Source: Candidatus Izemoplasmatales bacterium (lineage in GTDB: Bacteria; Bacillota_I; Bacilli_A; Izemoplasmatales; Hujiaoplasmataceae). From it: a DNA stretch of 64,000 bases. Location: positions 1,216,001 through 1,280,000 of the forward strand of contig JBMNEZ010000001.1 in assembly GCA_050949045.1 (NCBI GenBank), read 5' to 3'. Shown here one piece after another: positions 46,988-61,123 of this stretch. Below the pieces are notes generated by a model that had not been told where the DNA came from, ran no database searches, and worked only from the letters and a program-made list of their open reading frames with translations. The translations under genes were made by a program, and so were the position numbers. The first letter of the stretch is position 1; every line of letters begins with the position of its first letter.

Positions 46988-49900
46988 ATGAAATATAATC
47001 CTCGAAAACAAAAGAAAAAAATCCAGCTTTTAAAAGAAAAGTGGCAAAGGATTACTGAACGCTTAAAAACTCTTATCGATGACCAATTTACGTCAAAAAA
47101 GAAAACGTTCAGGTTTTTGGCGCTTTTTGTCTTTACGCTTTTCTTTGGTATTGAAATTCTGATCATCTTGATCAACAACAGTTTCTACACCAATTTTTCT
47201 GATGACCTATTGCAGTACTACACGATCATCGTTGACTTCATCCAACAAATCAAAACAGGAACGCTGTCGGTTTTCAATCTAAACAATTATCTTGGCGCGT
47301 CTTATTTTTCAGATGTCTATTATATTCCGCTTGACATTTTTACTTTTATCACTTTACTGTTGAGTTATGTAATGCCGATAAACATCGCCTACTCAGTCAC
47401 TGAATTCATTAAAATATTCGCCGGCGTCATGACATTTGCTTACTATCTTTCGCTTCAGGGAATGAAGAACCGAACGATATTTTGGATGGGGATTTTTTAT
47501 TTAATCAGTGGCGGTATGGTCAGTTTTATGGCATTTCCTGCTTTTTTGTCCCTAGTGTTCTACCTCCCGTTTTCCTTACTGGTAATCCATTGGTCTTTTA
47601 AAGGCAAGAAATGGATTATTCCGCTCTATACACTGGCACTTGTCTTGTACAATTTCTATCTTGCCTACGCAGCCCTTATTTTTACGGGAATCATGTTTAT
47701 TGTCGAGTACTTCAAGCGCAAGGATTTCAATTTTTGGCGGTTGTTATTGGACGGAGTCATTTTTCTCGGATTGATGATTTTAGGGCTGATTATGTCTCTC
47801 GGAATTCTCTACCCTTCTATCTTATTTATTTTGGAAGACACTTATCGATCAATTGGAACTTTCGACCCTTGGGTTGTCAATGTCTTCGGTTTGGAGTTGG
47901 AGTTGTTCAAACCGGAGATCTATATACGTTTTTTGGCAAAAATGTTTTCCGAACAAAGACCAATCGCTTTTTATGGCTTTATGCAGGATTATACCAAAGA
48001 ACATGTCTCCCTCTACATAACCATGACCGGATTGACGCTGATGTCCTACGTATACTTCATGAAAGACCGAATCAGCAACATCTACAAGGTATTGATTCCC
48101 ATTGGACTAATTTTGATGCTGTTTCCCATTTTTTCCTATGTATTTTCCGGAACGACCGATCAGCCCTATACCCGTTGGATCAATTTCTATCCCCTAGTCA
48201 TGGTCATGATTCTCGCGCATGTCTTTGATAACTATGGGTTTGAAGAAGTCAAAATGAAATGGCTGACGATACCGATTGTCTTGTTTCTGGCACTCGATGT
48301 TTATTTGATTTATTATTACATCACGAAACTGAAAGCGCTCGGCGATTTCCAATATGAAGATGCACTGACGGCCGACACCTGGATGATGGGAGTCTCCGCG
48401 GTGGTGCTCTTGTTAATGTTGGTGTTTGGCTGGCTGAAAAAGCAAAAGTGGTTCCGTATTCTCTTCTGGGTAGAATTCGTCTTGGGAATTGCTTTTATTT
48501 ATTCAGGGCCGTTTTCGATCAGGAATAAGATCGACACTTTTCAAAATGCCTATGATATCGATGATTTTCTCAGCGAGTCGATCGCCGACGATGAATTTTA
48601 TCGTGTCTATGTTGATTTGACGCGCTTCACGGTTGAACATACCAATTTTAACCGGATGACTTCTTTTCCAACCAATACTCGGATTTTCCATTCTTGGACA
48701 GATTCTGAAACCGATATGCTCGCTCACTTGCTTTTTGGTTCCCAAGAACACCAGACCAAAGAAGTCATTGATGCTCAAGCTATCTATCTCAATCAATTTC
48801 TTGGGTATAAATATTTATTGGCAAACAGCGAATTCACCTATTATTTTGATAGCAATCATTATGAATTGATGCGTGCGAACGACAAATATATGCTTTTTAG
48901 GATTGTCAGGGGGGAACCGTTCCAAGTATATGAATCGTATGTCACCAACCGAGAGTTTATCAATCATCGCAATCGCAATACCAAGGTCGAAGCGCAAAAG
49001 ACGTTATTGCGAACTGGCGTTATCGATGAAGGAAGATATGAGGATCTGCTTCAAGATTTGAATCTCGAGAAAATAGATCTTAATGGATCGAGTTTCACGA
49101 AAGCCCTGTCCGCAAAACGGACGGTCACAAACAAGGAAACAGTCACTATCGCCGGCATTGAAAACACTGCGGAAAGGGAGTTTTTCCGTTTTGACAACGC
49201 AGATTTGAAAATATCTTTTTCAAGTGGAGGTCTTTACATCAAAACTAACGCTAACGTCGACGACCTCGGAGAAGTATTTATGGAATATGCCGACGGAACG
49301 AAAAAGGCTTGTATCGTCACACCCACAGAAAAACATGATGTCAAAGGAGAATTTTGGTCGCAACCGGTCGCGATCTATTTCGAATCAGCCAACCTTTCCG
49401 ATAATTTCAATCTTACCTTGCGACTCGAGATGGCAAGGAATCAAGCTGCCTACCTTGTGTATGATGTCTCATCCATCGACTTCACCCGGGAGACGGGCAT
49501 GCTTTACTTTGACATGTCTCAGGAACTAGAGAAAGTATCATTCGTTGATGAGGATGGAAATGAATATGAAGGATTCAAAAACTATTACTATTTCAACACC
49601 AAACCAGTTACTATGTATATTTTTAAAACATATAATATGTATACTAAAGTCAACGATTTGTTCAATTTTGATTTAAAATACATTTATGATGACTTGAGTG
49701 ATTATGAATTGTTAACAAATCAGTCACTGGCAAAAGACAAGTCGTTGAAAATAAGCGGTGGCAAATTATCGCTTTCATATGAAAGAACCAGTGAAAGTGC
49801 CTACGACCAACTTGTGGTGGTTCCGATCGCCTATTCGGAAGAATGGCAATTCATTTCCGGCGAAGAGTATGAAACCATCAGTGCCAGCGGAGGCTTTCTT

Positions 49901-50086
49901 GGCATTATCATTCCCAACGGCGTTGAAGACGTTAAAATTGAAATGAAGTTCGTTCCCAAAGGACTCAAACATGGATTGTTGGGGTCGGGAGTCGGAATTC
50001 TCGTTTATCTTGGAATCTTTGTCTTGCCTTTGGTTATCAAAAAAACCAAAAGCAGAAAACAAAGCGTTAAGGAGATAGAATCATGA
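46988..50086 (+). CDS. YfhO-family polytopic GT-C glycosyltransferase
   Basis: SDD acidic motif after TM1, about a dozen TMs, large external domain, C-terminal PIAYSEEW...GFLGI...MKFVPKGLKHG plus TM. Confidence 0.82.
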   Translation: MKYNPRKQKKKIQLLKEKWQRITERLKTLIDDQFTSKKKTFRFLALFVFTLFFGIEILIILINNSFYTNFSDDLLQYYTIIVDFIQQIKTGTLSVFNLNNYLGASYFSDVYYIPLDIFTFITLLLSYVMPINIAYSVTEFIKIFAGVMTFAYYLSLQGMKNRTIFWMGIFYLISGGMVSFMAFPAFLSLVFYLPFSLLVIHWSFKGKKWIIPLYTLALVLYNFYLAYAALIFTGIMFIVEYFKRKDFNFWRLLLDGVIFLGLMILGLIMSLGILYPSILFILEDTYRSIGTFDPWVVNVFGLELELFKPEIYIRFLAKMFSEQRPIAFYGFMQDYTKEHVSLYITMTGLTLMSYVYFMKDRISNIYKVLIPIGLILMLFPIFSYVFSGTTDQPYTRWINFYPLVMVMILAHVFDNYGFEEVKMKWLTIPIVLFLALDVYLIYYYITKLKALGDFQYEDALTADTWMMGVSAVVLLLMLVFGWLKKQKWFRILFWVEFVLGIAFIYSGPFSIRNKIDTFQNAYDIDDFLSESIADDEFYRVYVDLTRFTVEHTNFNRMTSFPTNTRIFHSWTDSETDMLAHLLFGSQEHQTKEVIDAQAIYLNQFLGYKYLLANSEFTYYFDSNHYELMRANDKYMLFRIVRGEPFQVYESYVTNREFINHRNRNTKVEAQKTLLRTGVIDEGRYEDLLQDLNLEKIDLNGSSFTKALSAKRTVTNKETVTIAGIENTAEREFFRFDNADLKISFSSGGLYIKTNANVDDLGEVFMEYADGTKKACIVTPTEKHDVKGEFWSQPVAIYFESANLSDNFNLTLRLEMARNQAAYLVYDVSSIDFTRETGMLYFDMSQELEKVSFVDEDGNEYEGFKNYYYFNTKPVTMYIFKTYNMYTKVNDLFNFDLKYIYDDLSDYELLTNQSLAKDKSLKISGGKLSLSYERTSESAYDQLVVVPIAYSEEWQFISGEEYETISASGGFLGIIIPNGVEDVKIEMKFVPKGLKHGLLGSGVGILVYLGIFVLPLVIKKTKSRKQSVKEIES

Positions 50087-50997
50087 AAAATATCACGATT
50101 ATCATACCATCATACAATGAAGAACTAAATGTAAAACCATTTTATGACGAGGTCAGGAAATACTTAGATATCCCCGGCTACCTTTTTCGCTTGCTTTACG
50201 TCAACGACGGTTCCAAGGATAACACTCTTGACGAAATCAAAAAGTTGAGGAAGGCCGATAAGACGGTAAATTATCTCAGTTTTTCCCGTAACTTTGGCAA
50301 AGAAGCGGCGATGCATGCCGGTCTTGAGCATTCCAAAGAAAGCGATGCTGTAATCATTATCGACTGTGATCTCCAGCAGCCGCCGTCGTTGATTCCGGAA
50401 ATGATCAAGTATTATGAAGAAGGATATAAAATTGTTTATACCAAAGGCAGAACCAGAAAAGGAGAGCCAAAGCTCAGAACCTTTTTCGCCAACTGGTTTT
50501 ACAAAATCTATAATCGCCACACGGAAATGCCGCTCGACAACGGCGCCAAGGATTTCCAATTGTTAGATCGACAGGTCGTCGAAGCGTTTCTAGCAATCAA
50601 GGACAACTATCGGTTTGTAAAAGGCATCTTTTCCTGGGTCGGTTATCCCCGCAAGTGTATCGAATTCGATTTCATACCGAGAATGCGCGGAAAGAGCACC
50701 TGGAGTTTCAAATCTCTATTGCGATACGCATTCAACGGATTAAACCAATTTTCAACGATTCTTTTGATCGTACCAATGTTATTGGTTATGTTTTCGGTTT
50801 TGTTGCTGGTTGGAGATGTACTCCTTTATGTATTTGACATCTTTGCCCTGAGCGAGTTTCTGCTTGGCTTGCTGATGGTGCTAACAATCTTTGCTTTGGG
50901 AATCATCGCATATGTCCAAATATACTTACTTTATCAAATGCGACGCCAGACTTTTGACCGGCCGATCTATCTGATTCAAGAAAGTTCGGAGGAATAG
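50083..50997 (+). CDS. GT2 polyprenol-phosphate glycosyltransferase (GtrB/CsbB-like)
   Basis: IIPSYNEE, VNDGSKD, FSRNFGKEAA, DCDLQQPP, two C-terminal TMs, RPIYLI. Confidence 0.92.
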   Translation: MKNITIIIPSYNEELNVKPFYDEVRKYLDIPGYLFRLLYVNDGSKDNTLDEIKKLRKADKTVNYLSFSRNFGKEAAMHAGLEHSKESDAVIIIDCDLQQPPSLIPEMIKYYEEGYKIVYTKGRTRKGEPKLRTFFANWFYKIYNRHTEMPLDNGAKDFQLLDRQVVEAFLAIKDNYRFVKGIFSWVGYPRKCIEFDFIPRMRGKSTWSFKSLLRYAFNGLNQFSTILLIVPMLLVMFSVLLLVGDVLLYVFDIFALSEFLLGLLMVLTIFALGIIAYVQIYLLYQMRRQTFDRPIYLIQESSEE

Positions 50998-51001
50998 GAC
51001 T

Positions 51002-51496
51002 TTGTTCAAAAAAATCATCAATTTTGTCGTCAAGAATTTCCTAACCCGAAAATTTATTACTTTCGGCACTATTGGCATTATCAATACCGCAATCCATCTC
51101 CTGGTTTACTGGCTGGTTCATAATGCCTTTGCAGATCTGATTGACTCGGATACCTGGCTGGCTTTTGTCGCCAACACCTTTGCTTTCATCAGCGCCTCTG
51201 TATTTTCCTATTTCGCTAATGCCATTTTTACCTTCAAAGTTCATAATCGCAACGCTCTGCAGTTTTTTACGGTGATCATGGTTTTTCTTGCAAGATTGTT
51301 CATCAGCAACATCCTGACGGCAGGATTTGATTTTATAATCATCAATTGGTTTCACGCTGATTATTCATTACAACCGCTAACCAAAATCATCGCTCCGTTT
51401 TTGGGGTCTGTGCTGTTGATTCCGATCGCTTATTTTGCTTTAGATTATGTCTTTCGCAAGACCGGAAATAAAAAAGAAACCAATCCTAGTGCTTAG
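51002..51496 (+). CDS. GtrA-family flippase-like protein
   Basis: KFITFGTIGIINT, ANTFAF, FSYFANAIFTF; four TMs; follows GtrB-like gene. Confidence 0.85.
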   Translation: MFKKIINFVVKNFLTRKFITFGTIGIINTAIHLLVYWLVHNAFADLIDSDTWLAFVANTFAFISASVFSYFANAIFTFKVHNRNALQFFTVIMVFLARLFISNILTAGFDFIIINWFHADYSLQPLTKIIAPFLGSVLLIPIAYFALDYVFRKTGNKKETNPSA

Positions 51497-51565
51497 CCTT
51501 TTATTTATTGATAAATTGAGATAGAATATTAATAGGCGCACTGTTTGTTTTTGAGGAGGGAGACC

Positions 51566-52312
51566 GTGGCTTATTTTACATTAATCGCAGTCGTCACTTA
51601 TTTATATGCGATATTTCTATTGACGCTCAGAACGAAAGTCAGCCATAAGGCAATCCGCCCCAGCAAGGGGTTGCTGATTGTTTTTTCGATAGTGCTGATT
51701 ATTGCCTTGGCTCTCGATCCCGGAATCAAGTGGGAACTTGCGTCCAAAATATTTGCGCTCCTACCTCTTCCTTATATTCTGGTAATGATGTATTTGAATG
51801 AAATCAAGGCACTGAACAAAAAAATCGGCTTTTTCAAAAACAAGAAACACCGACTCACAAAAACCGACAATGATCTGGCAGACAAGCTTCTCGAAACTGT
51901 CGATTTTTTGCAAACCCGCAAAATTGGAGCCTTGATTACCATTGAAAGAGAAATCAATCTTTCTGCTTTCATCAGCAAAGCGATGATGATCAACGCTCCG
52001 GTCACGAGCGAACTTCTCGCCTCCATCTTCATTCCAACAACGCCTCTTCATGACGGGGCCGTCATTATTCGCGACAACGCAATCCTCTGCGCCAAAGCAT
52101 ACTTTCCCTCAACCGAAAGAACCGATCTTCCCCTCCATCTCGGAACCAGACATCGAGCGGCCATTGGCATCAGTGAACAAAGCGATTCGCTGACAATCGT
52201 CGTTTCGGAGGAAACCGGCTACGCCAGTGTCGCCATCAATCGCCAATTGGACTACAACGTCAGCAAAGAAACACTGAATCTCTACTTCGAAAAATACCTC
52301 AAAATCAAGTAA
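51566..52312 (+). CDS. cdaA: Membrane diadenylate cyclase (CdaA/DacA type)
   Basis: N-terminal TMs; GALITIER, PLHDGAVII, GTRHRAAIG, VSEETG; GTG start after GAGGAGG. Confidence 0.92.
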   Translation: MAYFTLIAVVTYLYAIFLLTLRTKVSHKAIRPSKGLLIVFSIVLIIALALDPGIKWELASKIFALLPLPYILVMMYLNEIKALNKKIGFFKNKKHRLTKTDNDLADKLLETVDFLQTRKIGALITIEREINLSAFISKAMMINAPVTSELLASIFIPTTPLHDGAVIIRDNAILCAKAYFPSTERTDLPLHLGTRHRAAIGISEQSDSLTIVVSEETGYASVAINRQLDYNVSKETLNLYFEKYLKIK

Positions 52313-52331
52313 GCGCCTCGGCGCTTTTTTC
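52311..52331 (+). terminator. Intrinsic terminator after cdaA
   Basis: AAGCGC-ctcg-GCGCTT plus T-tract. Confidence 0.75.
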
Positions 52332-52400
52332 TTGTTTCGATAATAGTATTTTTCGCCCCCCTATGATATAATTTATAAAGATAATAAGGTCATTCGGGAG

Positions 52401-54758
52401 GTGAACCATTTGGAGAAATACGATGTGTTGATCATCGGCAGCGATATCGCCTCTTTGACCGCGGCGCTTTTTCTCGCCAGGAAAATGCGTAGCGTTTCCG
52501 TTTTGATTGATGAAAAAGCCGATGTCATCCCCTCCGCAAGTCTCACTTTGACTGATCCTGAAAACAACAAATACCAGTTTAAATATGATCGTGACGGATT
52601 TCTTCCGGGACTTGATAGCTACGGTCTTGTTCATCAATATACGGAATTGATCGGATTGAAAGACGAGATCAAGGGCGATCTTGTTGAATCCGATTTCATT
52701 ATTCATGAAGACGGATCCGTTAGAAGACGAGATTATGCGTTTGACAGATACAGAGTCTATCTCGTCCGCTATTATCCTAAACAAAGAGATGCCATTCATA
52801 AGTTTTTCCGTGATCTTGAAAATCATTACGACAACTATGTCAGCCAGCAATTGAACATGATCAACAACCGCGACTACACACTGACATCTTTGATGATTGA
52901 GTGGGGCGACTATTCTCTCAAGGATCTTTTGGAAAAATATTTTTCTGATCCAATGATCATCAATGAGTTTTTACTCAACCATCAGATTAATGGAATTGAT
53001 CCGGCACAAGTCAACAGCTATCATTTCTTTTCCCAGATGTTTCTTGAACTCAAAGAAGGACTATGCCGATTACAGACCTCACAGGCGGAAATCAGAGATC
53101 TTTTGATCGAAAAACTTAACATCATTTCCCCAAAATCGGTCCAGAAACGTAGAATTAAAGAATATATCTATGATGATCTTGGAAAAATTACTGAAGTCAT
53201 CGATTATGCAAACAAAAAGATCGTTGCGAAACATTTTGTTGTGAACAGTAAACCCGACCTGTTTTTTAAAACCTATTTTCCTAGTTTTACGGATAACATC
53301 GAGACGATCGAAGCATATTATCCGAATATTCACTCCAAACTGCGGAAAAACACGCTCTATCTTGCCTTGAACAAAAAACCAAGCGCACTTGGAATAACCG
53401 AACTGACTTATCATTTTCCAATAACCATCGAGAAAAAAGCCGGTATTCTGTCACTCTTCAACTACAGCCTCTATGATCCAAAGGCTTGTCCTTCAAAAAA
53501 CGGAATGCTTTGTCTTGATTATGTTTATAACGAAGATACCGCCGTGAAACAAGATGTATTACTAGCAACATTGTATCAATATTTTCCCAAACTTAAAAAA
53601 ACAATAATCGCCATCAAAGAAGGAGTTCCCACACAATTGTTGGCCAATATCAGCCGCGAGGATCTGCGTAAGGGGCTTTCCATTAACAAGCAGATCGAAA
53701 TTGAGGCAGGGGAACACTTGCGGTTTTTTGAGAATTTGCATCTGACCGGCTCTTGGCAGAGACCGGAAGCGGGACTTTATGGCAGTTTCCATAGTGGCAT
53801 CTTTCTTGCCGATCAAATCGAGGAGATACTCTATTTCGGTGATGATGACGACACGTTCTATTACTTGACAAACGATGAGATCATGATGATGATTCGACAT
53901 AATTACGGCAAAAAAACACTTGGGAAAACGGAAATTCACATCAACTTTCATATTGGCAAGACCGATTATTTTGTTAGAACCAAAGCCAAGAATATTACCA
54001 TTCATCATGGTGAATATGCGAATCCCGATCTCTCGATCTACACGACTAACGACAAACTGTCAAATCTGTTATTGAAAAAAGTCACCTTTGATGAGGTGTT
54101 CCAAGGGGGCGGATTCCGCTATACCGGTAGTACCGATTTGTTATATGAAGCGGTATCGGCTTTCGAGTTGGATGACTATCAAGAAGCGAAACCGCGTTTC
54201 CAGCCGCGGACCAAGATCAGAAACCTCGGGTCCTTGTTCTTGTTTGCATATCTTCTTGTATTCAGCGCCGTCGCGCTTGCCCATAATTTCGTCGATATGA
54301 TCTGGCTGGCGCCATTTGCGCTTGGAATTGTTGTTGTACTCGGATTCATCCGACTAAAAACATACCGCAAACTGAACTGGTTTGAATATGCATGGGGCAT
54401 TCTTTACCTATTGATGACAATCTTGGCCATTTTCTGGCCGGCATTTAACACTTGGAGAAACGACGATGTGCTTCTTGGTTTAATGGGAGGCAGTTTCTTC
54501 GTCACTTGGCTCATCAACAAGCCGATTGTCTATGAATTTAGGAAGTATGATTTTCGGCAAGATTATTCTGATTCTAAACTATTCAAAGTCATAAATAACG
54601 GTCTCAATTTTGTCTGGGCACTATTCTTTCTTGTCATTCTGGTCGGAACTCATTTCACCGGAAACGACTATGTAAGCGCCTGGTACAATCTGGTTTTCAT
54701 GGGGATTTTCTTGACTTATGTCTATCCCCTTATCTACGTGAAAACCAACATCAAATAG
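52401..54758 (+). CDS. Fusion of phytoene-desaturase-like FAD fold (degenerate), SCP2 lipid-binding domain and multi-TM domain
   Basis: YDVLIIGSDIASLTAA; ENLHLTGSWQRPEAGLYGSFHSG; SCP2-like INFHIG..YFVR..HGEYANPDLSI..GGFRYTGS.DLL; about six C-terminal TMs. Confidence 0.72.
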   Translation: MNHLEKYDVLIIGSDIASLTAALFLARKMRSVSVLIDEKADVIPSASLTLTDPENNKYQFKYDRDGFLPGLDSYGLVHQYTELIGLKDEIKGDLVESDFIIHEDGSVRRRDYAFDRYRVYLVRYYPKQRDAIHKFFRDLENHYDNYVSQQLNMINNRDYTLTSLMIEWGDYSLKDLLEKYFSDPMIINEFLLNHQINGIDPAQVNSYHFFSQMFLELKEGLCRLQTSQAEIRDLLIEKLNIISPKSVQKRRIKEYIYDDLGKITEVIDYANKKIVAKHFVVNSKPDLFFKTYFPSFTDNIETIEAYYPNIHSKLRKNTLYLALNKKPSALGITELTYHFPITIEKKAGILSLFNYSLYDPKACPSKNGMLCLDYVYNEDTAVKQDVLLATLYQYFPKLKKTIIAIKEGVPTQLLANISREDLRKGLSINKQIEIEAGEHLRFFENLHLTGSWQRPEAGLYGSFHSGIFLADQIEEILYFGDDDDTFYYLTNDEIMMMIRHNYGKKTLGKTEIHINFHIGKTDYFVRTKAKNITIHHGEYANPDLSIYTTNDKLSNLLLKKVTFDEVFQGGGFRYTGSTDLLYEAVSAFELDDYQEAKPRFQPRTKIRNLGSLFLFAYLLVFSAVALAHNFVDMIWLAPFALGIVVVLGFIRLKTYRKLNWFEYAWGILYLLMTILAIFWPAFNTWRNDDVLLGLMGGSFFVTWLINKPIVYEFRKYDFRQDYSDSKLFKVINNGLNFVWALFFLVILVGTHFTGNDYVSAWYNLVFMGIFLTYVYPLIYVKTNIK

Positions 54759-54783
54759 ATTTCAACGAAAGGAGAGACGTCGA

Positions 54784-55956
54784 TTGGAAGATTTATTCAT
54801 CTACGTTTGTCTGGGTATGATGACTTTGCTTTTTGTACTAAGCGGTGCCATCTATCGAAAAGTCCATATTTGGAAAGCGATTCTCTTAGTGGTGTTCGCG
54901 CTTGTCTATTTAGTCATCAAGTTTTTTCCTGACTGGCTTTCGTTTGTTTCCCTTGTCAAATTCAAAGAATATTACGGATATGCCCTATATCTTGGTAGCG
55001 TTGTTTTCGCAATTACTCTTAAACGCAAGATCAGAATCACACAGAATCTGACCGACTACGACTTTTTTGAATTAGAAAAGGAACTCGAAGAAACAAAATC
55101 GACTTCCGACTTGCTTAGGCAAAGGTATATTTCCACCATCAGATTGGTCAGGGAAGCATTGTTTTTCTATAATGAAGATCTCAATGGCCTGTTCGTTACC
55201 GACCAGTTTCTCGATATCACCAAAACAACCAAGCATGAGTATACACTTGAAGAATACACCGATATGATTCATGATGATGATCAGACCTCCTATCTCGGAA
55301 TCATCAAGAAAGCCAGCAAGAAAAACCCTAGTTATGAGATGAAATACCGGATCAAGGCGGGGACCGGATTCATCTGGATTGAAGAAAAGGGCCGCGTCTT
55401 TGAGTTTGACAAGAAACTTCATATCATCGCCGCGGTCAAACCCATCGACATCAAACTGTTTCCGGACACCTCGATCCATGAAATCGATTCGCTGCCCAAC
55501 GAACAGAATCTCCTCGCATATCTGATACAAATAATGAAAGAGCCGGAGCCTTTTTACCTGATCATGATCCAACTGACCAATATTCCCGACATCAACCAAC
55601 GGTTTGGCAGGGATGTGGGTAACCTGATGATCGCTGAGTATATCAAAAAAATGCGGTTCCATTTCGCAAAAGACATCAACAGTATTTTTCGAATCACCGG
55701 AATCCAATTCGCTCTGATCATCAAGGAACAGCGGAAGTACGATGTCCTCTACCGCGCTCTTCAAAGCGGAGGCGATCTCGTGAATTTGATGCTCAATATT
55801 GGCGGCATTCAACAGATCGTCTATCCCAATCTCGGCATCGTTCGCCATGAGCCTTGGTCCGAGTATTCGGTTTCGGAACTCAATAGTCTGGCAAATAAGA
55901 CATTGAGCGAGGCGATCCGGAATCAAAAACGCAATTACTCCATATACGGAGAATGA
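54784..55956 (+). CDS. Membrane PAS + degenerate GGDEF-domain protein
   Basis: Three N-terminal TMs; PAS (IHDDD..YEMKYRI..IWIEEKG); DSLPN, INQRFGRDVGNLMI, FRITGIQF in place of RxGGDEF. Confidence 0.8.
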   Translation: MEDLFIYVCLGMMTLLFVLSGAIYRKVHIWKAILLVVFALVYLVIKFFPDWLSFVSLVKFKEYYGYALYLGSVVFAITLKRKIRITQNLTDYDFFELEKELEETKSTSDLLRQRYISTIRLVREALFFYNEDLNGLFVTDQFLDITKTTKHEYTLEEYTDMIHDDDQTSYLGIIKKASKKNPSYEMKYRIKAGTGFIWIEEKGRVFEFDKKLHIIAAVKPIDIKLFPDTSIHEIDSLPNEQNLLAYLIQIMKEPEPFYLIMIQLTNIPDINQRFGRDVGNLMIAEYIKKMRFHFAKDINSIFRITGIQFALIIKEQRKYDVLYRALQSGGDLVNLMLNIGGIQQIVYPNLGIVRHEPWSEYSVSELNSLANKTLSEAIRNQKRNYSIYGE

Positions 55957-55983
55957 TCTATTGATATTTATGATCGGAGACAT

Positions 55984-56637
55984 ATGATGTATCAAGCACT
56001 GATTGTCGCTGCCGGTTCAGGGTCGAGAAGCGGCCTCAGCTATAATAAGAATCTGTACCTTCTCAAAAACAAGCCAATGATTCTCTATAGTGTTGAAAGG
56101 TTTCTTGAGGACAAAGACTGTGAAGGTGTCATCATCGTCTGTTCTGAAAGCGATAAAGACAGTTTTTCACTGATTTTGGAAGACAAAGCCCGGCTTGTCA
56201 TCGGAGGAACGACCCGTCAAATCAGCGTATCTAATGGGTTGAACCACATACATTCCAAATACGTTCTAATTCATGACGGCGCCAGGCCCAATTTAAAAAA
56301 AAGTGCAATCGCCGCTATCAAAGCCCAACTTAGTCTGGTTGATGCCGCAACGCTCTGTGTTGTTGCTAAAGACGCTTTAGCGTCTGTAGGCAAAGGAATG
56401 ATCACCCATATCATCGATAGGGAGAGTACGGTACAGATTCAGACCCCACAAGGATTTCTTACCTCCAAGATCATCAAAGCGCATCAACTAGCGAAAGCGC
56501 ATAAACACAAATATCCCGATGACGCTTCGTTAATCTGGTCGGAACTAAAGGAGAAAGTCGCCGTCGTTCCCGGCGATTCAAATAACATCAAAGCCACAAC
56601 GGCTGATGACTTTGTAGTATTGGAGGCTTTACTATGA
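55984..56637 (+). CDS. ispD: 2-C-methyl-D-erythritol 4-phosphate cytidylyltransferase
   Basis: AAGSGSR, GGTTRQISV.NGL, LIHDGARP, QTPQGF, NIKATT. Confidence 0.93.
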   Translation: MMYQALIVAAGSGSRSGLSYNKNLYLLKNKPMILYSVERFLEDKDCEGVIIVCSESDKDSFSLILEDKARLVIGGTTRQISVSNGLNHIHSKYVLIHDGARPNLKKSAIAAIKAQLSLVDAATLCVVAKDALASVGKGMITHIIDRESTVQIQTPQGFLTSKIIKAHQLAKAHKHKYPDDASLIWSELKEKVAVVPGDSNNIKATTADDFVVLEALL

Positions 56638-57125
56638 TCAGAATCGGTTTTTCCAAAGATATTCATCCGCTGGTTTCGGGAAGGCCGTTCATTCTCGGCG
56701 GCGTCGAGATTGAACACGACAAAGGCCCTATCGGTCATTCCGACGCCGATTGTCTGCTTCATGCCATTTCCGAATCGATCCTCGGAGCGCTTGCACTTGG
56801 TGATCTCGGGAAATACTTTCCCAACGAGAATCCAGAGTACGAGGGCTATGATTCAGCGTTGATCCTCAAAGAAGTTTTCACATATGTCAAGAACAAAGGC
56901 TATGAGATCCACAATCTTGATTGCATGGTTTCGCTCGAAAAACCAAAGCTAAGGCCTTATATTGACAAAATGCGGCAGCGGATCGCCGACATTTTGGAAA
57001 CCGACATCGACAAAATTTCGATCAAGACGACCACCTTTGAGGGACTCGGGATCGTCGGCGAAGAAAAAGCGATCATCTGCGAGGCGGTTGTCCTGCTTGA
57101 AAACGATATGCTTTTGATGCTCTAA
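56634..57125 (+). CDS. ispF: MEcPP synthase
   Basis: RIGFSKDIH, GHSDAD, LGDLGKYFP, KTTTFEGLG. Confidence 0.95.
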   Translation: MIRIGFSKDIHPLVSGRPFILGGVEIEHDKGPIGHSDADCLLHAISESILGALALGDLGKYFPNENPEYEGYDSALILKEVFTYVKNKGYEIHNLDCMVSLEKPKLRPYIDKMRQRIADILETDIDKISIKTTTFEGLGIVGEEKAIICEAVVLLENDMLLML

Positions 57126-57143
57126 GGCCAGATGGCCTTTTTT
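57124..57143 (+). terminator. Intrinsic terminator after ispF
   Basis: AAGGCC-agat-GGCCTT plus T-tract. Confidence 0.75.
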
Positions 57144-57228
57144 CTTATACCAGAAAATCCAACAAGGGTTTTTACTTTATCTTTTCAGAGATTGTGATAC
57201 AATAAATAATGCAAGGAGTTGAGCCCCG

Positions 57229-60244: not shown

Positions 60245-61123
60245 TTATTTTGCTTTAAACGATTTGAGTAGAGCACGCTTGTTAAAGGCAATGAATTCTC
60301 GAGAGAACAAATGACTGACGGAAAACTCAGTTACATTTTCCAAAACCTCGCCATCGGCTTGAAAGAAACGCGATTTGGAACTTTTGACCTGGATTTCTTT
60401 TCCTTTAAGCACAGTTACCCATTTGCGAAGACCGGTATGAAGACCTGGATAAATCGACAGAAACAAAACCTGCAATAATAATTTATTAAGATTGTGAATC
60501 ACGCAGATTGTGAAATCCGTCGCTTCAATGTCGGCTTCTGGGGCTACTTTCATGCCGCCACCAAAATATTTGCCATTTTGAACAGCAGTGAAGAAACAGT
60601 CACGATAATGCGCACTAACGCCATCAACGATAACGTCCATTTCGGCAGGTTCGAAATTTGCCGTTGCTTTGAAGACATTTTTAAAATAGGCCAATTTATT
60701 TTTTTTCTTGTCGTTATTCACGTAATGGCATACAGAAGCATCAAAACCGACACCGCAACCATTGATGAATTTGATATCACCGGAATCAGTTTTGGCTACG
60801 CCAATGGTCACGTTTGCCCTGCCTAGGCGTTTTAGACTTCTCAAAAAATCATTTCCCGACCCGCTTTTAGCGAGATAAATGTTTTGCTTGATCTTGCTTA
60901 CGTCGACATTATTTATCAAGTAGTTGATTGATCCATCCCCGCCCAAATAGAGAATATCAGTCAGTTTCGGGTTGTTGTCGAGATATTTGTTGAGGTTATC
61001 AAATTTCAAGGACGACCGTAAAACGAACGGAAGATGGTGACGCTTAAAGAACTTGACGATTTTGTTGGTCATTTTCTTTGATTTTTTGTTGTTTGACAAA
61101 GGATTATGTACGATTAAAAACAT
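60245..61123 (-). CDS. Second diacylglycerol/lipid kinase family protein
   Basis: HNPLS, GGDGS, GSGNDF, G.GFDA, NGKYFGGGM, ADGE. Confidence 0.87.
   Translation of the reverse strand: MFLIVHNPLSNNKKSKKMTNKIVKFFKRHHLPFVLRSSLKFDNLNKYLDNNPKLTDILYLGGDGSINYLINNVDVSKIKQNIYLAKSGSGNDFLRSLKRLGRANVTIGVAKTDSGDIKFINGCGVGFDASVCHYVNNDKKKNKLAYFKNVFKATANFEPAEMDVIVDGVSAHYRDCFFTAVQNGKYFGGGMKVAPEADIEATDFTICVIHNLNKLLLQVLFLSIYPGLHTGLRKWVTVLKGKEIQVKSSKSRFFQADGEVLENVTEFSVSHLFSREFIAFNKRALLKSFKAK

Follow-up and report, generated by a model that had tools for sequence, protein, structure and literature searches.

The window analysed here is a stretch of 64,000 nucleotides from a Candidatus Izemoplasmatales bacterium (contig JBMNEZ010000001.1, positions 1,216,001 to 1,280,000). 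It carries a putative four-gene operon on the + strand, of which the first two genes, here called A and B, are the subject of this work. Gene A (52401..54758, start more likely at 52410) encodes a pseudo-enzyme with a CrtI-like domain (residues ~1-480), an acidic linker and SCP2-like domain (~480-600) and a multi-helix membrane domain (~600-785). Gene B (54784..55956) encodes three membrane helices, a helical linker, a PAS_3 domain and a degenerate GGDEF domain. Two genes of the methylerythritol phosphate (MEP) pathway follow, namely ispD, the MEP cytidylyltransferase (55984..56637; PF01128, E 3e-50; TIGR00453 above cut-off), and ispF, the methylerythritol cyclodiphosphate (MEcPP) synthase (56634..57125; PF02542, E 5e-59; TIGR00151 above cut-off). 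The 5' neighbour, also on the + strand, is the diadenylate cyclase gene cdaA (51545..52312; PF02457, E 1e-37; TIGR00159, E 6e-53). Labels made of f, g, G, L or P and a number are our analysis labels for families, genera, genomes, loci and proteins.

An earlier sequence-only reading had described this layout, and its description agrees with our results. The open reading frames (ORFs) are separated by gaps of 25, 27 and -4 nt, and IspD and IspF both pass the Pfam and NCBIfam cut-offs. Hairpin-plus-T structures typical of intrinsic terminators lie after cdaA (52311..52331, hairpin 52311-52326, a 6-bp stem and a T run) and after ispF (57124..57144, hairpin 57124-57139), both on the + strand. The extended -10 element that had been placed near 52364, TATGATATAAT, occupies 52362..52372 (+) with no recognisable -35; the consensus promoter scanner did not list this site. 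As for the start of A, the GTG at 52401 sits within a Shine-Dalgarno-like GGAGGTG and the matches of most relatives begin at residue 4, so translation more likely starts at the TTG at 52410.

A TGnTAnAAT site precedes A in 37 of 44 loci and the next unit, yutD, in 30 of 45, but B in just 2 of 46 and ispD in 1 of 40. Since the site is common before A and rare before B and ispD, one unit from A through ispF is predicted in most A-carrying genomes. The internal ispD promoter that would have spoken against such a unit is thus nearly absent as this pattern. A 10/12 promoter-like match at 55961-55988 overlaps the ispD start, at a frequency of such matches that is near chance (26 found against 18.3 +/- 4.7 in shuffles), and weak hairpins lie within gene A at 54469 and 54506.

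Co-transcription finds weak support in RNA contigs, one of which joins B and ispD (55920-56236) and another ispD and ispF (56057-56720), without being proof of one transcript. These sets come from four of the six RNA runs listed, all shallow (depth 2-8), in which holes are uninformative; no contig crosses the A-B junction and none lies over 51023-52727. Directly 5' of cdaA in family f1, and at 46988-51496 of the window, are yfhO-like, GT2 and gtrA genes that together make up a surface glycosylation set of three parts.

Origin and motif loss of protein A

Protein A is homologous to the CrtI/amine-oxidase fold, as seen by full-length alignment to PF01593-positive relatives, with weak Rossmann and TIGR02730 matches of its own. 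The SCP2-like part matches PF14864 over residues 507-590 (E 1.2e-5, 25.9 bits, under the cut-off of 27), and SCP2 structures match weakly, at E 0.002-0.1. For the membrane domain, Atlas leads to YciB/IspA (PF04279) score only 0.78-0.81, and the genome has no PF04279 match at E 10.

Full-length proteins with the same three domains and intact motifs were recovered by a profile search across 1.84 billion representatives. These are named at source as flavin adenine dinucleotide (FAD)-dependent oxidoreductases, from Bacilli, Clostridium, Niameybacter, [Clostridium] colinum and Culicoidibacterales. They pass PF02036, are weakly matched by PF00996 and are 24-26% identical to the A orthologues of family f2. 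One of them, P0258, matches CrtI phytoene desaturase (4DGK) at E 9e-18 and 4REP at E 9e-15, and A aligns along its length to the P0258-type family. By these alignments, A descends from an FAD oxidoreductase with intact motifs and the same build of three domains. The ~795-aa "FAD-dependent oxidoreductase" of gut Firmicutes shares this build and, unlike A, retains all motifs; its top Atlas cluster scored 0.98 and may be A's own cluster. None of four intact-family loci adjoins B, cdaA or ispDF within flanks of up to 1.5 kb.

The motif-intact oxidoreductases (P0258, P0260, P0388-P0462; L188, L191) are themselves widespread in gut Firmicutes and apparently uncharacterised. The same SCP2-membrane tail is found in a flavin mononucleotide (FMN) reductase, P0357. 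Some relatives also have CrtI-like paralogues of 535-627 aa at other loci, with the N-terminal GxGxxG and GG intact.

The eroded catalytic signatures that had been read from A alone are confirmed across its orthologues. A joint alignment shows none of GxGxGG, the GG doublet, GGxGxL, RY, GAVYG and PGGG in any of the A orthologues (0 of 47), whereas 13-14 of the 14 intact relatives have each of them. The decay is graded, as GGGLGS with its acidic residue is retained in 10/10 core-f2 orthologues and in 0/28 of f1, where the non-glycine residues of the first loop differ from genome to genome. PGGG has turned into PE[AS]G, with PEAG or PESG in 33 of the 38 f1 and core-f2 orthologues and the Glu in all 38. 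A CrtI study gives G8, G10, E31, G38, G53 and V244 as invariant among FAD-binding relatives (PMC3382138), and in our own alignment through P0258 the window's A has no equivalents of G10 and G38. Compared with CrtI as described there, A is without these two flavin-binding glycines and has SCP2 and membrane domains in addition, in a genome without phytoene synthase. A phytoene/squalene synthase (PF00494) gave no match in this genome, and a role of A in a carotenoid pathway here was rejected on that ground.

In terms of selection, the ratio of nonsynonymous to synonymous rates (dN/dS) of A is 0.12, 0.18 and 0.17 in three pairs with unsaturated dS, similar to neighbouring genes; dS is saturated in 8 of 12 pairs, and these values rest on few pairs. 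In f1 and core f2, purifying selection rules out a decaying pseudogene. Conservation within A is highest in the SCP2 region in 8/12 pairs, at 83-95% identity. Because this region is the best conserved under selection, we infer that A is kept as a lipid-binding or lipid-presenting membrane protein centred on its SCP2-like part.

The possibility that A has kept some enzyme activity, by way of an unusual cofactor site or a lipid reaction that is not redox, was weighed against these data. The strong purifying selection, the GGGLGS retained in core f2 and the invariant Glu of PE[AS]G, which could be functional, would fit such an activity. It is nevertheless highly improbable, given that the first loop varies among f1 genomes, that the remaining flavin motifs are gone from every orthologue and that conservation peaks in the SCP2 part rather than in the CrtI-like domain.

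Non-catalytic binders of prenyl groups or lipids are known on both folds, with Rab GDI/REP on a flavoenzyme-like fold and UbiJ/UbiT on an SCP2 fold. They differ from A in organisms and partners and are parallels by analogy only.

Protein B and its degenerate GGDEF domain

Protein B matches PAS_3 and GGDEF (PF00990, E 5e-9). Its structural model (mean predicted local distance difference test score, pLDDT, 80.6; predicted template modelling score, pTM, 0.46) has three N-terminal helices, a helical linker, a PAS domain and a GGDEF domain, and its Foldseek matches are GGDEF and PAS-GGDEF structures. Here too the erosion that was first noted in the window extends to relatives, with RITGIQF, RISGIRF and variants replacing the signature at 303-309. 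In a 52-row alignment the metal-binding D-x-D is absent, an IQLTN-type sequence being found at 262-266. The I-site RxxD normally lies five residues before the GGDEF signature; at 296-299 B has KDVN, KDIN, REKN and similar sequences instead. An active diguanylate cyclase was rejected on the loss of GG(D/E)EF and of the metal-binding aspartates, and an I-site receptor for cyclic di-GMP (c-di-GMP) on the loss of RxxD. Asn271, which we take to be the guanine-binding Asn of active cyclases, is present in 52/52 rows, and together with Arg303 and Gly306 it may still hold a guanine nucleotide. The same genome has two intact-looking cyclases (RYGGEEF, RFGGEEF) and four further GGDEF proteins in EAL-containing genes.

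The GdpP/YybT architecture consists of membrane, PAS and degenerate GGDEF domains followed by DHH/DHHA1. B has the same domain order and a gene context related to cyclic di-AMP (c-di-AMP), but no DHH/DHHA1 after its GGDEF. A split GdpP was ruled out, as a separate GdpP-like gene is present. B profiles match the GGDEF part of the GdpP-like protein at chance level, against E 1e-6 to 1e-19 for canonical GGDEF domains. The GdpP-like phosphodiesterase itself has 813 aa (G000 C1:1043339-1045780), with a C-terminal end that is presumably ribosomal protein L9-like.

A closer analogy is offered by Staphylococcus aureus GdpS, whose GGDEF domain recruits the diacylglycerol (DAG) kinase DgkB to the membrane with its catalytic residues dispensable (PMC11962490). 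As described there, GdpS is a lineage-conserved, membrane-anchored GGDEF protein serving as docking site for a lipid enzyme, and B would be like it in this respect. In the same account GdpS has 5TMR_Lyt and keeps GGEEF, whereas B has three helices and a PAS domain, no GG(D/E)EF and no 5TMR_Lyt Pfam match. B thus resembles GdpS by analogy only and is not a member of its family. The host of B also differs from the GdpS case in having intact diguanylate cyclases.

A DgkB/YegS-type lipid kinase is encoded in the window at 60245-61123 (-), convergent after pgi, and many of the order's genomes have it within a few kb of B. Such a kinase is found in most B-carrying families, in 49/50 other order genomes sampled and in 257/400 overall. 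This co-occurrence fits recruitment but does not discriminate, and G071 and G122 have B without a kinase match. Candidate partners of B are CdaA, this DAG-kinase-family protein and A.

Distribution and separability of the genes

The order survey covered 93 Izemoplasmatales genomes at >=85% completeness. B is present in 91 of them, at one locus each, A in 70 (71 with G097) and IspF in 84. A adjoins B in 66 of the 69 genomes with both, the other three having them on separate contigs; A is always directly 5' of B, with gaps mostly <30 nt. B lies <=3 kb from ispF in 82/84 genomes. The linkage in relatives that the sequence-only reading had asked about is therefore present. B occurs without A in 21/91 genomes (22 in the raw count, minus G097, whose A lies at a contig end), and A is absent from g20, g22, g25, g28 and f3, where B and ispDF remain.

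In a 399-genome class sample, B-like proteins were found in 112 genomes, with 30/31 in f15, 8/8 in f20, 11/11 in f28 and 5/6 in f5. The homologues of these four families mostly have a second PAS domain, the B of the order having one PAS fewer than outgroup B. A search with P0258 gave no full-length match in the same families (G227 and G413 unscored in both surveys). Thirty outgroup loci were fetched, of which 28 hold B orthologues; L166 and L169 were dropped as other GGDEF proteins, L166 being a GGDEF-EAL protein. Among the 28, cdaA is upstream of B in 27, and 23 have a 5-formyl-tetrahydrofolate (5-formyl-THF) cyclo-ligase directly after B; 23 loci include ispF. Because outgroup loci share it, the block cdaA-B-cyclo-ligase-ispD-ispF is, by gene order, older than A and common to neighbouring families.

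The slot between cdaA and B may hold A, a small peptide, mgsA or nothing. On a quick B tree of 92 rows, the A label needs four changes, three of them forced by starred branches. The orthologue is the same in f1 and f2 and occupies the same site, and A was therefore probably gained once and lost at least three times. In all 13 A-less f2 loci, cdaA directly abuts B without terminator or promoter and the TGnTAnAAT site is missing between them (0/13). Hairpins like the cdaA terminator are found in most A-carrying loci and in none of these.

Several side observations concern the same region. A conserved ORF of 55-65 aa, with an amphipathic start, a Pro-Phe motif and one hydrophobic C-terminal helix, directly follows cdaA in 18/19 outgroup loci without a larger intervening gene (L147-L159, L161, L163, L174-L176) and is a candidate small CdaA partner; a search for it in this genome was negative (best E 0.19). 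In f5 and f12 (L160, L162, L164, L165, L170-L173), the gene directly before B is methylglyoxal-synthase-like (PF02142 for L160). At L161:6450-8078 (G402), a 542-aa fusion of 5-formyl-THF cyclo-ligase, IspD and IspF lies directly 3' of B. In genus g5 (L050/G024, L052/G013; 87% complete), ispD is absent at the locus and has no protein-search match, while ispF is present. Eight core-f2 loci (L057, L059-L065) have an AT-rich non-coding B-ispD gap of 258-360 nt, several of which hold a DnaA-box-like TGTGGA(A/T)AA; this sequence also occurs in coding starts and may be due to chance.

The genes can be separated from the MEP enzymes. The gene order in all four genomes of g23 (L070, L127-L130) is cdaA-A-B-pspC-yutD, split over two contigs in G091, and ispDF is missing from the locus. 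IspF and IspG are found in 0/4 of these genomes, with no convincing Dxr, and HMG-CoA (hydroxymethylglutaryl-coenzyme A) reductase in 4/4. This 1.0 Mb lineage is itself an apparent MEP-to-mevalonate swap inside Izemoplasmatales. Likewise, five outgroup genomes keep cdaA-B-cyclo-ligase with IspF in 0/5 and HMG-CoA reductase in 3/5.

These cases bear directly on the idea of the sequence-only reading, in which the two proteins would respond to an isoprenoid or lipid and IspD and IspF would couple them to MEP supply. A conserved promoter-to-terminator unit, the proximity of B to ispF and the CrtI-like ancestry of A are in its favour, and A is most eroded precisely in the MEP-less g23: A identity in two g23 pairs is 32% and 56%, against 67% and 87% for cdaA. 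A is, though, also divergent or lost in g23-related genera that retain ispDF. Set against the idea, besides the genomes that keep A and B or B without MEP genes, are the distance of dxr and ispG from the locus in the same genome, an unrelated folate enzyme that splits B from ispD in 13/20 loci of one related-locus set, the wide B-ispD gaps of core f2 and the missing phytoene/squalene synthase. The g23 loci, the genomes with B but not A and the far greater age of B leave a dedicated tie of A and B to MEP precursor supply unsupported. An isoprenoid-sensing operon is unlikely, and we give this model very little weight.

A second alternative has B regulating CdaA in the stead of CdaR and so tuning c-di-AMP, with A as passenger or accessory. 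The constancy of cdaA upstream of B in the outgroup, their direct abutment in A-less f2 and the finding of the YbbR/CdaR domain (PF07949) in 0/5 genomes tested would all suit it. On the other side, family f3 (L071-L080) keeps B in 10/10 genomes with a diadenylate cyclase (DAC) domain in 0/4 tested, maf preceding B there, and in the window a terminator parts cdaA from A and B. We therefore regard this role as doubtful. Two f3 genomes checked have an 817-820 aa DHH protein like the GdpP-L9 protein of this genome.

With A-less genera, MEP-less genomes and the DAC-less f3 all keeping B, it follows that B has outlived the loss of A, ispDF, the cyclo-ligase and cdaA, each in some lineage.

A layered reading of the locus

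We propose that the locus combines an old adaptor (B), a younger lipid-binding pseudo-enzyme (A) and inherited ispDF neighbours as three layers rather than one device, with a probability of roughly 0.6. The first layer is the old block of B, in some cases the cyclo-ligase, ispD and ispF behind cdaA. In the second, B would act as a non-catalytic adaptor, anchored by its membrane helices so that the PAS-GGDEF head sits at the inner face of the membrane. Its GGDEF fold, without c-di-GMP synthesis, would serve to dock a partner from core metabolism, much as DgkB docks on GdpS. The loss of the B motifs is observed directly, and the adaptor role, the ligand and the partner are suggested by analogy. 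In the third layer, A would have entered the slot between cdaA and B at an early point in the history of the order, bringing a terminator and promoter with it. It would then have lost its flavin chemistry and been retained as a membrane-anchored protein that binds or presents lipids; its descent, motif loss and selection are seen in the data, and lipid binding is the part suggested by them. The promoter of A would now drive B and ispDF, with A and B independent of the MEP enzymes and B independent of A.

Some observations weigh against this proposal. All counts come from related genomes, which are kin and not independent samples. A is never found away from B, and the tight A-B and B-ispF linkage is also compatible with functional coupling. 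The fastest evolution of A is seen in g23, which has no MEP genes, and an isoprenoid ligand for A is possible, as g23 still makes isoprenoids by another route. Lastly, GGGLGS and the acidic residue are present in all ten core-f2 A proteins, some of which may still bind a dinucleotide.

The same linkage is the main argument for a lipid-sensing pair, in which A would bind lipid through its SCP2 and CrtI cavities and signal through the PAS-GGDEF of B, with ispDF as bystanders and A as an optional input added to an older B. Both proteins are membrane-anchored pseudo-enzymes under purifying selection, and A might replace the PAS domain by which the B of this order falls short of outgroup B. Yet B stands without A in 21 genomes, its short form included, short B also occurs at two A-less outgroup loci (L167, L168), and the slot before B accepts unrelated genes. 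The pair is thus a tentative and rather unlikely alternative to the layered reading. As for the membrane module first suggested, its parts do hold, both proteins being non-catalytic in appearance, membrane-anchored, conserved and linked, with a well-conserved SCP2-like part in A; what the data do not support is a dedicated, MEP-coupled module.

In terms of literature, a search by title and start of abstract, with subscription journals and bioRxiv supplements outside its scope, found no publication on A or B and no paper linking Izemoplasma with GGDEF. The text of PMC8397711, which gives transcriptomes for strain zrk13, contains none of "diguanylate", "phytoene" and "isoprenoid", and one of its supplements none of six terms; "GGDEF", "diadenylate" and "isoprenoid" are absent from PMC10868615. 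A and B are real, conserved pseudo-enzymes that are apparently undescribed. New here are the MEP-to-mevalonate genomes, the finding that A was lost more than once and the DAC-less f3.

The evidence ties neither A nor B to isoprenoid supply, and the mechanism proposed rests on analogy. Among bacterial pseudo-enzymes, A makes a clean example: the family from which it descends is known in its intact form, and its decay can be followed through graded stages. Single-copy B has persisted in several genome-reduced families, down to genomes of 0.7-0.8 Mb, and has done so through the loss of each neighbour. This points to a core function for a GGDEF protein that is catalytically dead, and few proteins of that class have been worked out. 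More speculatively, B could be a hub in wall-less Bacilli that docks CdaA or a lipid kinase and reads GTP, with A as a lipid-loaded input in Izemoplasmatales. If this unlikely scheme were true, the lipid state of the membrane would set c-di-AMP levels or lipid recycling in cells that have neither CdaR nor a cell wall.

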